From: a virus | Reading direction: 5' to 3' (one strand) | DNA length: 64,000 bases | IMG/VR virus record: IMGVR_UViG_3300025874_000006 | Coordinates: 1 to 64,000 of that record | Shown here: positions 34,983 through 38,916 of the stretch, piece by piece | Numbering within the stretch: the stretch's first letter is position 1 | Layout: the number at the start of each line of letters is the position of its first letter | Notes under the pieces: generated by a model | Told to the model about the DNA's origin: nothing | The model's input: the letters and a program-made list of their open reading frames with translations, nothing else | The model's database searches: none | Made by a program: the position numbers and the translations under genes

Positions 34983-35702
34983 TTATATGTCAAGAACATT
35001 TGCACTATTTTCTTCATTATATTGGGCAATAGTGTCGCGAAGTGGACGTACCCAGTTGTCACGATGTTCAATAAACACTTGAGGTTCGTGATTATCAACG
35101 GAGATAATTGTAACGAGTTGAGTGATGGGCATTCCAGTGCGTTCTTCCCACATGATGGAATATGCAGACTCTTGCATGAAGTAGTTCTTAATCCAGTCAA
35201 GACGTTTGGGTTTCATAGAAGTCTTGTAGTCGATGATAGACAATTTACCATCGAAGACGCCTACGCAATCCACACGGCCGGCAACACCCAGATGGGTAGA
35301 GTACAGTGGTGCTTCTTGAGCATGAACGACAGAAAGACGTTCGTCAAGGATTGGTTTAATCTTTAGGAAGGAATCTATTAGGTCAGGAGTACGTTTGGTC
35401 AACTTCTGTTCACCAGTGTCGATATCCATAGCCATGTACTTGTCATAGTCTGGATCGTTGTTGACATACTGTTCACAGATTTCGTGAACCGCAGTACCAC
35501 GCGTAGATGCGCGATAGGAGACACGGTTCGCTTCTTTCTCACCAACACGAGCACGCCATTTAGCAATGGAGTCGCGAGAGAGAATAGAAAGAACAGTAGT
35601 GATAGAAGGTAAGGTGATACCTTCGGGGGTTTCGTATTGACGACCAGTGTCCGTAGTTACGGCAGTCATCTCAGTCAGTTCCACGGGAACATGTTTAAAC
35701 AT
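34983..35702 (-). CDS. PD-(D/E)xK exonuclease (Cas4/RecB-like)
   Basis: PSITTVL, RGT.VH, E, AGRVDC, IDYKTS, YF.Q..AY. Confidence 0.9.
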   Translation of the reverse strand: MFKHVPVELTEMTAVTTDTGRQYETPEGITLPSITTVLSILSRDSIAKWRARVGEKEANRVSYRASTRGTAVHEICEQYVNNDPDYDKYMAMDIDTGEQKLTKRTPDLIDSFLKIKPILDERLSVVHAQEAPLYSTHLGVAGRVDCVGVFDGKLSIIDYKTSMKPKRLDWIKNYFMQESAYSIMWEERTGMPITQLVTIISVDNHEPQVFIEHRDNWVRPLRDTIAQYNEENSANVLDI

Positions 35703-35771
35703 AATATAATCCAATTCAATTTAATATACCCCTATTATAAAGGATTTGAATGGATTTGTCAATAGGTAAAT

Positions 35772-35801: not shown

Positions 35802-35887
35802 GAATCCCCACGAATACGGGGGCTCTTGTAGGGTACTTTATGTCTTGGAGAACCTTAACTTACTGCTCTGGCATTTTTCTCATGCAC
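35802..35887 (-). pseudogene. 3'-half remnant of the structured RNA at 36179-36371
   Basis: Aligns with 36179-36281; lacks one hairpin and the 5' pairing partner. Confidence 0.65.
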
Positions 35888-36016: not shown

Positions 36017-36079
36017 TCAATCACCGCTGAGAATAGCGGCAGTCATTTCAGTCAAAGGTATAGGGTCGTGTGTAAACAT
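36017..36079 (-). pseudogene. Truncated copy of the exonuclease N-terminus (20 codons)
   Basis: MFTHDPIPLTEMTA versus MFKHVPVELTEMTA. Confidence 0.8.
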
Positions 36080-36148
36080 AATATAATCCAATTCAATTTA
36101 ATATACCCCTATTATAAAGGATTTGAATGGATTTGTCAAGGGTGATAG

Positions 36149-36174
36149 GTGACCAATTTAGGACTGTTGGTCAC
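36149..36174. promoter_or_regulatory. Operator copy 4 (GTGACC-N14-GGTCAC)
   Basis: 9 bp upstream of TTGACA at 36134-36139. Confidence 0.75.
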
Positions 36175-36178
36175 GTAA

Positions 36179-36371
36179 GAATCCCCACGAGTACGGGGCT
36201 CTTTATGGTACTCTTATGGTTTGGTGAACCTTAACTTGCGAGAGGTTTAATTCTCTGCTGCTTGGCATTTTTAACATGCACGTTTTGAGAGATCGCAGTT
36301 ATCAAGTTAGTGCGCAATGTTAGGCGCAATGTTCATCTCTTTTAGTACCGAGCCCCGTACAGTGGGGAAAT
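36179..36371 (-). ncRNA. Putative ~190-nt structured RNA directly 3' of tRNA-Ala
   Basis: Closing helix CCCCAC-U-GUACGGGGCUC / GAGCCCCGUAC-UC-GUGGGG plus nested helices. Confidence 0.7.
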
Positions 36372-36445
36372 TGGTGGAGGAACGGGGAATCGAACCCCGA
36401 TCGACGCCGTGCAAGGGCGCAGTAATCCCGTTATACTATTCCCCC
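36372..36445 (-). tRNA. tRNA-Ala(UGC)
   Basis: Cloverleaf, G3:U70, encoded CCA. Confidence 0.9.
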
Positions 36446-36855
36446 AATAATGCTATTACTTCTTCCTTGTATTTACTATGAAACATTTCATGATGATTTG
36501 GACATAATGGTATAAGGTTATTTATATCATTGTTATGATGGTTCTCATCCATATGATGAACCACCACAATCTTATCAAAACCACATATCCTACATTCTTT
36601 AGGATTATGTCGAAAACATAGAGTTCTATAGTTAGTAGCGTTTTTATTCCAATAGTCTTGTCTATTATTGGCACAACTTCTACTACAGAATTTAGATTCT
36701 GTCACTTTCTTGGTGAGTGCTCTACCGAATACGGTATATGATTCTCCGCACCTAACACAGTCTTTACTATGTTCTTTTTCTTCACCAAATCTTTTATTGT
36801 AAGCAGCTGTTTGTTTTTGTTTATACTCTTCAGTATGATAACGACCATTATTCAT
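36436..36855 (-). CDS. HNH homing endonuclease with zinc finger
   Basis: CVRC, FCSRSC, CRICG...VHHMD.NH.NN...NL..LCPNHH; late promoter at 36883-36890. Confidence 0.9.
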   Translation of the reverse strand: MNNGRYHTEEYKQKQTAAYNKRFGEEKEHSKDCVRCGESYTVFGRALTKKVTESKFCSRSCANNRQDYWNKNATNYRTLCFRHNPKECRICGFDKIVVVHHMDENHHNNDINNLIPLCPNHHEMFHSKYKEEVIALLGE

Positions 36856-36919
36856 AATGCTCTCCTTTGTTAATCACACTAATATTTATAATAAATGCGA
36901 TTTACAAACACTCCTACCT

Positions 36920-37075
36920 CTATACTTTCTTATCTCTATTTATAACCTTCTCTTTCTTAACCGATTCCTCGGTCTTTTTCTTCTTACCAAAGATGTTGTC
37001 CCAGTTATCTCTTCCTTGTTTTGATAACGTCTTAGACTGTATGGCGTCTCCGGTTATATCGTTTCTGCTTACCAT
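36920..37075 (-). CDS. Small conserved phage peptide (51 aa, not in ORF track)
   Basis: MVSRNDITGDAIQSK...NWDNIFGKK. Confidence 0.65.
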   Translation of the reverse strand: MVSRNDITGDAIQSKTLSKQGRDNWDNIFGKKKKTEESVKKEKVINRDKKV

Positions 37076-37250: not shown

Positions 37251-37472
37251 TTACTCTACAGTCAACTGGTCGGCCCATTTCAATTCCTGAATGATTCTAT
37301 TATACCAATTAGAATCTTCTTCTGAATTGTTCGGATTATCCCTTTCTACAGTCAATTGTTCTATACGCACAGTTATATAGTCTGTTCGTCTAGACGCCTT
37401 ACGTGATATCCTATCTAATAACTTTTTCTTCGAACCTGTCAACACTTCTATATTATTATAATCCATTGTCAT
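37251..37472 (-). CDS. Hypothetical protein
   Basis: DYI..RIEQL...WYNR.IQEL.W. Confidence 0.65.
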   Translation of the reverse strand: MTMDYNNIEVLTGSKKKLLDRISRKASRRTDYITVRIEQLTVERDNPNNSEEDSNWYNRIIQELKWADQLTVE

Positions 37473-38880
37473 TACACCCCAAATCTCTACGCGAGTCTTC
37501 ATCATTGTTAGTTACACAATTACCACTTGGTAATTCTTCTGGTACATATCTCATCAAGTCTGAGTCGTATAGACCCTCTTCTAAGAAAGAAATTAAGTTG
37601 TCTGTCTCTTCATCAGTCAGACTGAGAGGAACAAACCGATAATCCAAATCAGTTATCTCTACCTGTGGATGTTCAGGAATACCTGCTACTTTATATCGTA
37701 CAACATCTGCTATAGATGACATAGAACCACCGTGACCGAATACAGTAGTATCTTTAAGATTGTATAGGGGTGGTACCTTAAAGGCAAAATCAGACATCTG
37801 GTCACCAGTAAATCCACCACGACCTTTTCGGTCGGCTTCTTTCACTTCACCAACAGTCTCTTCCCAGATATCCAAGTCATGGAAACCTAGAGTCATAAAC
37901 ACTTCACTCGCCAAAGAACCGACAGGTGAGGATAACGCGGGCCCATTATGACACCCTGCACAATTACCTTTACCGAAGAACACCTTCGCACCTTCGACTT
38001 GTTCTAGGGTCATAGCATTTTCATCACCTCGCAACAACCTCTGGAAGGGTGCGCGGTTTGCAAGTACAGTACGTTCATATGCTGCAATCGCAAGTGCAGC
38101 TGCTTCCAACATGTCGTCTGGTTGAGATGTACCGTATGCCGCTTCAAACATCATCTGATACTTCTCATTAGTGGTAAGGATAGAACCCTCTTCGCCAGGA
38201 TTAAGTCTATGCACTCCTAGTCCAGCAACCGCCTGAGTCTCCAGACCAGAGAAGTTACGTAAGTTAGCTTCCTTCGGAGTACCCTCGGTGAAGTGTCGTT
38301 CAGGATCTATACCAATATTGACAATACCACCAATCACATTACCGAATTGGCCATTCCATAACATAACTTCTTGGTATGCGGTATTCAATATAGTAGGCGA
38401 TGTTAAAGGTTGTACATCAGCAAACTCTTCCATACCTTCCGCGAAATTACGATGGTCAAATCCAATACCACCTTCACCAATACCTTGACGAATACCGGAC
38501 TTAAATCCGTTCTGACCATTATGACAAGATGCACAAGACCATGTGTTGTTCATATCGGTTTCATTGGTCTCGGTCGAAGTCATACCAGTTTCATGGAAAA
38601 GCAACTTGCCGAGTTCCACCTTATCCGAGGTAATAGGATTACTAGGGTCTTGTGGGATGTTTAAGAAGTCATCGCTCTCTGGTAGGATATAACCTTCATA
38701 GGAACCGGTCGGTGAGGTTACACTCAATATATCACGAAGTTCACCAATAGAAACTTCTAGAGCTGTGGGTTGTGGGGGCGGAGTAACCGTTATAGGTTCT
38801 ACCGGAGTAGTCTCAGAACCACCGGAACCACAGGCAGTTAGGAATATAGACGATGACAACAACGCAATTTTACTATTCAT
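37456..38880 (-). CDS. Di-haem cytochrome c peroxidase/MauG-family lipoprotein
   Basis: Lipobox LTAC; K.ELGK.LF; CASCH and CAGCH; W.G; FKVP.L.N; HGG. Confidence 0.9.
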   Translation of the reverse strand: MNSKIALLSSSIFLTACGSGGSETTPVEPITVTPPPQPTALEVSIGELRDILSVTSPTGSYEGYILPESDDFLNIPQDPSNPITSDKVELGKLLFHETGMTSTETNETDMNNTWSCASCHNGQNGFKSGIRQGIGEGGIGFDHRNFAEGMEEFADVQPLTSPTILNTAYQEVMLWNGQFGNVIGGIVNIGIDPERHFTEGTPKEANLRNFSGLETQAVAGLGVHRLNPGEEGSILTTNEKYQMMFEAAYGTSQPDDMLEAAALAIAAYERTVLANRAPFQRLLRGDENAMTLEQVEGAKVFFGKGNCAGCHNGPALSSPVGSLASEVFMTLGFHDLDIWEETVGEVKEADRKGRGGFTGDQMSDFAFKVPPLYNLKDTTVFGHGGSMSSIADVVRYKVAGIPEHPQVEITDLDYRFVPLSLTDEETDNLISFLEEGLYDSDLMRYVPEELPSGNCVTNNDEDSRRDLGCNDNGL

Positions 38881-38916
38881 AATATAAGAGCCTCTCATAA
38901 CTCTTTTCAATTGTAG

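Follow-up and report, generated by a model that had tools for sequence, protein, structure and literature searches.

A family of structured RNAs encoded directly behind tRNA genes in marine T4-like phages

On the minus strand of the window (the whole 64,000-nt stretch analysed here, taken from the start of a 151-kb IMG/VR virus record with an estimated completeness of 91%), the last gene of a tRNA array is followed by a 193-nt element that, as judged by comparative sequence analysis, is truly an RNA under structural constraint, with its ends paired, and belongs to a previously undescribed phage non-coding RNA family in marine T4-like phages. ARAGORN places nine tRNA genes in this array. The first base of the element adjoins the CCA of tRNA-Ala, and the minus strand reads from AUUU-CCCCAC at 36371 to GUGGGG-AUUC at 36179:

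36372..36445, minus strand: tRNA-Ala (anticodon UGC; tgc) with encoded CCA, the last tRNA of the array and the upstream partner in the transcription unit
36179..36371, minus strand: structured RNA (193 nt), matched by the covariance model over 36177-36371

An earlier note on this DNA had described a structured RNA of ~190 nt at this point, and the tRNA is indeed found at 36445..36372, with the sequence after its CCA as stated. The minimum free energy of the 193-nt RNA is -67.7 kcal/mol, against -39.7 +/- 3.9 kcal/mol for 200 dinucleotide shuffles, none of which folds as well (z = -7.1); together with compensatory changes in relatives, this bears out the claim of structure. At the gathering score, no Rfam family was matched in the window apart from the tRNAs, and 6S was not among the matches. 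With E values up to 10, nothing meaningful and no 6S model was found in the 1.2 kb around the element, and three divergent family members gave no match, 6S included. The absence of a known family fits the suggestion in the earlier note that the RNA may represent a new one; a published catalogue of 8,495 candidate RNAs from IMG/VR (PMC10690425) could contain a fragment of it. The element had also been said to hold no convincing gene, and this stands: no ORF is conserved over it, many of the indels between members are not multiples of three, and the members share no common reading frame.

Related viral contigs were fetched with a pattern derived from the two copies of the RNA in the window (one full-length, one partial) and with the protein encoded downstream, a PD-(D/E)XK exonuclease (Pfam PF12705). 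In about half of 80 exonuclease loci there is a tRNA-Ala gene (tRNA-Asp in one group), then 170-300 nt, then the exonuclease gene, and a covariance model, for which four close sequences and a comparatively derived structure were used, gives a full-length match in all of these tRNA-bearing loci. Moreover, all 17 further viral contigs that were found by a conserved-core motif match the model, as do 16 of 80 contigs from metagenomes, some of them from Tara Oceans and from other marine assemblies. In total, full-length matches were obtained in ~45 viral loci, which are marine phage contigs, in 16 metagenome contigs and in one isolate, Phage C48C1 (Kyanoviridae, 156 kb), the sole related isolate in the phage collection. 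The 151-kb genome from which the window is taken has one full-length copy, on its minus strand. Five relatives that have protein genes rather than a tRNA ahead of the exonuclease gene gave no match within their records, a complete genome of 149 kb among them; phages of this type can, therefore, do without the RNA. A core-motif scan of bacterial genomes yielded chance hits only, as none of 80 scored loci among the matches listed fits the model. In C48C1, the 3' half of the RNA is overlapped by an annotated 32-codon 'hypothetical protein' (OQ984149.1 59600-59695; L136 2758-2853), a call that is most likely spurious.

For 29 distinct sequences, standard pairs occupy 97.0% of cells, as against 30-47% once the 3' partners are displaced by 1-3 columns, and 38 of the 52 pairs show compensatory changes, on both sides, albeit in an alignment that was fitted to the model structure and is thus biased towards it, and over sequences that amount to perhaps eight lineages, such that cell counts overstate the number of independent events. 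None of 500 shuffles reaches any of the observed measures of pairing or covariation. The same architecture is reproduced by independent minimum free energy folds of ten divergent members, and compensatory changes are also visible in plain sequence alignments. When all members were aligned with MAFFT alone, RNAalifold recovered hardly any structure, as the strands of P1 had slipped out of register; the model-guided alignment solved this problem. In paired columns, 48 cells hold G-U or U-G, as against 8 with A-C or C-A, and the model scores 17-23 bits on the opposite strand, as against 130-230 on the tRNA strand. The constraint, therefore, lies on the RNA of the tRNA strand, and not on DNA or protein. 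One could still read the element as a DNA inverted repeat acting as a recombination or replication signal, or as a small protein gene, given the protein call over part of it in C48C1 and the existence of the weak opposite-strand matches, which any set of inverted repeats would produce; but with a six-to-one excess of G-U over A-C, so wide a gap in score between the strands and indels that respect no frame, we give this reading hardly any credence.

The RNA can be divided as follows:

36368..36371, minus strand: U-rich single-stranded linker AUUU, from CCA to P1; presumed endonuclease site, at which cleavage is inferred
36350..36367, minus strand: P1 5' strand, 6 + 11 bp with one bulged U; 14 of 17 pairs changed on both sides
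36183..36201, minus strand: P1 3' strand
36345..36349, minus strand: P2 5' strand (5 bp), partner 36207-36211
36336..36344, minus strand: purine-rich 5' side (9 nt) of the large internal loop, the 3' side (13 nt) being 36212-36224
36331..36335, minus strand: P3 5' strand, partner 36225-36229; every pair covaries
36311..36328, minus strand: P4 side hairpin; optional, whole subfamilies being without it
36303..36309, minus strand: P5 5' strand, partner 36232-36238; 7 of 7 pairs covary
36295..36298, minus strand: P6 5' strand, partner 36258-36261; 4 of 4 pairs covary
36282..36294, minus strand: asymmetric internal loop with the invariant AUCUCUC; presumed functional surface
36264..36281, minus strand: P7 hairpin; stem GCAU/AUGC invariant, and the GU that opens its loop conserved
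36241..36256, minus strand: P8 side hairpin, variable; missing from several lineages, covarying where present
36173..36182, minus strand: U-rich tail after P1, weak in the window, with a clear U run in most relatives; likely intrinsic termination point

The overall plan is that of a rod, and family members range in length from 150 to 210 nt, the tabulated extremes being 152 and 208 nt. P1 and P2 provide ~22 bp with two small interruptions and are followed by the 9/13-nt internal loop, and then by P3, P5 and P6; the last of these closes the asymmetric AUCUCUC loop, and the P7 hairpin forms the tip. The 17-bp helix that closes the two ends had been noted from the sequence alone; it is present as the 6 + 11 bp of P1 and is changed on both sides in relatives. 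Likewise, the nested helices GGUAC/GUACC, UGAAC/GUUCA and UAACUUG/CAAGUUA and the side hairpins are all in place, each helix with support from covariation. All pairs of inner P1, P3, P5 and P6 covary, whereas none does so in P7, and the invariant positions are concentrated in the distal loop and the P7 stem, not in the large internal loop. An invariant loop beside a stem that never covaries is the pattern expected of a sequence-specific contact surface, although the 7-nt pyrimidine stretch AUCUCUC, to which the consensus structure assigns no partner, might just as well pair with another RNA as a seed or make a tertiary contact. A pseudoknot between the purine-rich side of the internal loop and the invariant loop is possible, with 5-6 bp in the clade of the window and 3-4 bp in distant clades.

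The order of elements around the RNA is fixed across the family: a TATAAATA motif, tRNA-Ala (tRNA-Asp in one lineage), the U-rich linker, the RNA, the U-rich tail, a sigma70 promoter and the exonuclease gene. The corresponding signals in the window are these:

36937..36944, minus strand: TATAAATA motif, the ancestral site that directly precedes tRNA-Ala in relatives, here parted from the tRNA by an inserted HNH gene
36883..36890, minus strand: second TATAAATA motif, just upstream of the HNH ORF
36519..36526, minus strand: third TATAAATA motif, within the HNH ORF, 74 nt upstream of tRNA-Ala
36111..36139, minus strand: consensus sigma70 promoter, a perfect TTGACA-17-TATAAT (12 of 12 matches), which begins the next, separate transcription unit

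TATAAATA is a T4-type late-promoter word. It is found 16 times in the window, 15 of them on the coding strand, where 3.9 occurrences would be expected. It precedes the RNA in 29 of 33 members, and is 7-40 nt ahead of the 5' end of the tRNA in 25 of the 32 members tabulated; in most lineages, 7-10 nt separate its end from the mature 5' end of the tRNA, so that a late transcript would begin a few bases ahead of the tRNA. Late transcription, which the earlier note had proposed, is on this sequence evidence probable. The linker between CCA and the RNA is 4 nt in most members (purine-UUU) and 12-23 nt in some. At the other end, AUUCUU or AUCUUUUU comes after P1, and 5-11 of 14 nt are U; in the clade of the window the U tract is weak (AUUCUUA), and so termination at this point is uncertain. 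The sigma70-type promoter starts 0-37 nt beyond the U-rich tail across the family, and in many members P1 and the U tract abut its -35 box.

Several features of this region are recorded here for their own sake. The inserted HNH endonuclease ORF (36436-36855, minus strand) has a weak match to Pfam HNH_2, below the cut-off, and its stop codon falls within the first bases of tRNA-Ala; the tRNA-Ala of the window is a variant of the canonical tRNA-Ala seen in insertion-free relatives and has a lower Rfam score. Also in the tRNA region is a 484-residue ORF (37456-38910, minus strand) of the di-haem cytochrome c peroxidase/MauG family (Pfam PF03150, E = 1.6e-22). Between the tail of the RNA and the -35 box, at 36149-36174 on the minus strand, there is an inverted repeat with 8-bp arms and a 10-nt spacer; its TGAC...GTCA core is kept in the clade of the window, the outermost pair is changed on both sides in some relatives, and it may serve as one more hairpin, or as a site for protein binding ahead of the early promoter. 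In several relatives (L054 at ~2790-2960; L070, L071, L077, L081 and L085), a hydrophobic ORF of ~45 codons with its own promoter separates the RNA from the exonuclease gene.

Taken together, the sequence data tip the balance towards a reading in which the RNA is made at the end of a short transcription unit of the late class, is stable, and acts in trans as a protein-binding decoy or scaffold. Transcription of the gp55 type would start a few bases before the tRNA, which would be freed by RNase P and by a cut, of the RNase E type, in the U-rich linker; it would end at P1 and the U tract, and the resulting species, of ~165-195 nt, would persist, its proposed stability being due to the burial of both ends in a long G+C-rich helix. 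Late in infection, the RNA would then act in trans, its invariant loop and P7 offering a sequence-specific site to a host or phage protein. The retention of seven helices together with a helix of invariant sequence fits such a protein-binding or three-dimensional role better than it fits a seed-pairing small RNA or a bare terminator. A narrower version, in which a late decoy without sequence kinship to any known one uses its invariant loop and hairpin to capture a central machine or regulator of the host, seems to us rather unlikely in its specifics; its candidate targets would be the RNA polymerase holoenzyme (in the manner of 6S), a global RNA-binding protein, a defence protein that senses RNA, or a ribonuclease.

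The earlier note had likened the RNA to 6S RNA, which sequesters the sigma70 holoenzyme. The resemblance is real in outline: 6S measures ~180-200 nt and closes its ends in a long irregular helix, the RNA of the window has 193 nt and ~22 bp in P1-P2, both have a large internal loop within a rod, and they have in common a few terminal bases (AUUU.../...AUUC), E. coli 6S starting with AUUUC and finishing with GAUUC, as the earlier note had stated and as its sequence confirms. These bases are short single-stranded flanks of the closing helix; they are consistent with a similar way of forming the ends, and fit common processing as well as common function. A 6S-like decoy would use the rod and the 9/13-nt loop, set between ~22 bp and ~20 bp of helix, to mimic an open promoter and sequester sigma70 RNA polymerase late in infection, and the late-promoter motifs upstream, as well as the consensus sigma70 promoters of the early genes of the phage, suit this idea. 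However, no Rfam 6S model is matched at E values up to 10 in any of four family members, and the global similarity to E. coli 6S (52% with gaps) lies only ~3 standard deviations above shuffles. Moreover, where 6S is an unbranched rod with a conserved central bubble, this RNA carries the side hairpins P4 and P8, as the earlier note had itself remarked in calling the interior more branched than that of a classic 6S, and its conserved core is the distal asymmetric loop and hairpin rather than the bubble-like 9/13-nt loop. The logic is also weak, because a trapped sigma70 holoenzyme takes with it the core enzyme that gp55 needs for late transcription. We therefore see only a slim chance for 6S-like action.

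Similar in its anatomy is the 3'ETS-leuZ of E. coli, the trailer of the glyW-cysT-leuZ transcript, which acts as a sponge (bioRxiv 10.1101/2021.04.25.441314). Both run from the last tRNA of the operon to its intrinsic terminator and are presumably freed by a cut after CCA; throughout the phage family, a linker of 4-23 nt after CCA is followed by an RNA that ends in P1 and the U-rich tail, with a new promoter next. By analogy, the RNA might be a base-pairing regulator or sponge, an RNase E-released trailer whose AUCUCUC pairs with purine-rich sites in mRNAs or small RNAs, and the identical anatomy, the unpaired and invariant state of this stretch and the occurrence of its complement in several ribosome-binding regions of the phage all speak for it. 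Nevertheless, against start regions, the best duplexes of the loop do not surpass those obtained with shuffled loops, and the ribosome-binding motif is GAGGA, AGGA or GGAGA, the loop complement being merely one of many enriched purine words; a mimic of the anti-Shine-Dalgarno sequence was rejected on the same two observations. Furthermore, 3'ETS-leuZ comprises ~50 nt, with a seed and a terminator, and pairs with the assistance of Hfq, whereas the phage RNA is three to four times longer and has seven covarying helices of a kind rarely kept by base-pairing small RNAs, and pairing in trans leaves the invariant stem of the adjacent hairpin unexplained. Regulation by pairing is accordingly a minority reading to which we give some weight, but not much. 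Little likelihood, too, attaches to an end module that acts in cis, as a stable terminator or insulator before a strong early promoter and as a guide or guard in the maturation of tRNA-Ala, with no function once released. The conservation of P1 and the U tract, which often abut the -35 box of the next promoter, and the finding that the element goes with the last tRNA, and not with the exonuclease gene (whose tRNA-less relatives show no match), speak for this reading; yet a plain hairpin would terminate equally well, and the conservation of five further helices, of an invariant loop and of an invariant hairpin 80 nt from the point of termination is left without explanation. The compact multi-helix fold with its invariant core, and the possible pseudoknot in the clade of the window, might also be those of a catalytic or self-assembling RNA, namely, a new self-cleaving ribozyme with a part in releasing the tRNA, or a small assembly made of RNA alone, like ROOL and GOLLD, which are elaborate phage or prophage RNAs beside tRNA islands (one GOLLD lies downstream of tRNA-Met in a marine sample; bioRxiv 10.1101/2024.12.08.627333). 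No known ribozyme model is matched, however, and the Rfam models of ROOL and GOLLD find nothing in the window. With 4-23 nt between CCA and P1, depending on the member, a precise self-cut at the end of the tRNA is unlikely, and the pseudoknot shrinks in distant clades. ROOL and GOLLD, moreover, are RNAs of 500-800 nt with unrelated folds that form many-copy cages, and at 150-210 nt the tRNA-linked RNA is a third to a quarter of their size. We consider catalysis or assembly very improbable.

The nearest counterparts in position are two small structured RNAs of T4 that are late and stable, rnaD (species 2) and rnaC (species 1), the role of which is unknown (PMC3014915; PMC9697503). In T4, the order is segB homing endonuclease, tRNA-Arg, rnaD, rnaC, and in the window it is HNH, tRNA-Ala, RNA; the same position, on the same strand and after the last tRNA (directly 3' of it in the window and in all relatives examined), is thus occupied. 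The tRNA-linked RNA differs from both in being longer and in having its own ends closed by the 17-bp helix. When the family model was run without filters over the T4 tRNA region, the best score was 8.8 bits, elsewhere in the region, and nothing was found over rnaC or rnaD. In addition, the 3' end of rnaC bears a tRNA-like T arm, to which the tRNA-linked RNA has no counterpart. The T4 RNAs are, therefore, positional analogues rather than homologues.

Some further candidates were tried and rejected. Neither a Y RNA nor YrlA is matched in Rfam, and there is no TROVE domain, the mark of a Ro partner, in the 151-kb phage genome, although a Ro protein might be supplied by the host; ARAGORN reports no tmRNA, and there is no conserved tag frame. 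As to P7, the length of its loop, which ranges from 6 to 13 nt, is at odds with a mimic of an anticodon arm or T arm, and a T-box-like use of its GCA is countered by the pairing of these bases and by their being unchanged in the tRNA-Asp lineage.

Phages have repeatedly put elaborate RNAs beside tRNA genes, and the tRNA-linked family is an independent and much smaller example of this habit. To our knowledge, RNAs C and D of T4, ROOL and GOLLD are all without a known role. The new family is tractable: its structure covaries well, its invariant surface is clearly bounded, its unit of promoter, tRNA, RNA and terminator is simple, and C48C1 (the record of which gives no host) is a sequenced carrier. 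It thus offers an entry point to the role of such RNAs late in infection. If the decoy reading were true, it could hint at the role of T4 RNAs C and D, a question that is decades old. For annotation, the consequences are the correction of the spurious protein gene over the RNA in C48C1 and a candidate new RNA family for the databases.

Finally, the window contains a partial second copy of the RNA:

35802..35887, minus strand: truncated 3'-half remnant of a second, diverged RNA copy, from which the 5' partner strands are absent

The earlier note had taken this copy, which lacks a side hairpin, as a sign of structural constraint. That a diverged copy of the 3' half exists is upheld (87% identity over 59 nt), but the argument for constraint is not, as the nearest lineages lack the hairpin anyway: the copy aligns without a large gap, at 83% identity, and most closely with lineages that are naturally without P8. 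It gives no match to the covariance model, every 5' partner strand being missing. It is, therefore, what is left of an RNA resident in another lineage, truncated by a break at the conserved core; on this alignment, the missing hairpin is inherited and is not a sign of selection on the remnant. In the window, the order is the full RNA, its promoter, a 20-codon exonuclease stub, ~130 nt with their own promoter and terminator, the RNA 3' half (35887-35802), the same promoter again and the full gene, whereas single-copy relatives have simply tRNA-Ala, RNA, promoter and gene. The duplicated arrangement also occurs in a second viral contig, and a marine contig from ENA has the RNA with an identical model score, so the duplication is not an assembly error. 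The short unit between the stub and the remnant (36020-35886, minus strand) has a near-consensus promoter, TTGACT-17-TATAAT (11 of 12 matches), has at its end a G+C hairpin and then seven T, and is also present in the sister contig (L007/L006); from its sequence, it looks like a self-contained small RNA gene. Additionally, the promoter and 5' leader are near-identical between 36036-36139 and 35659-35762 (minus strand), within copies that have a mean identity of 81% over their whole alignment, and the part of the RNA upstream and the first codons downstream are far more diverged; a promoter and leader so alike within diverged flanks suggest gene conversion, or recombination inside the promoter.
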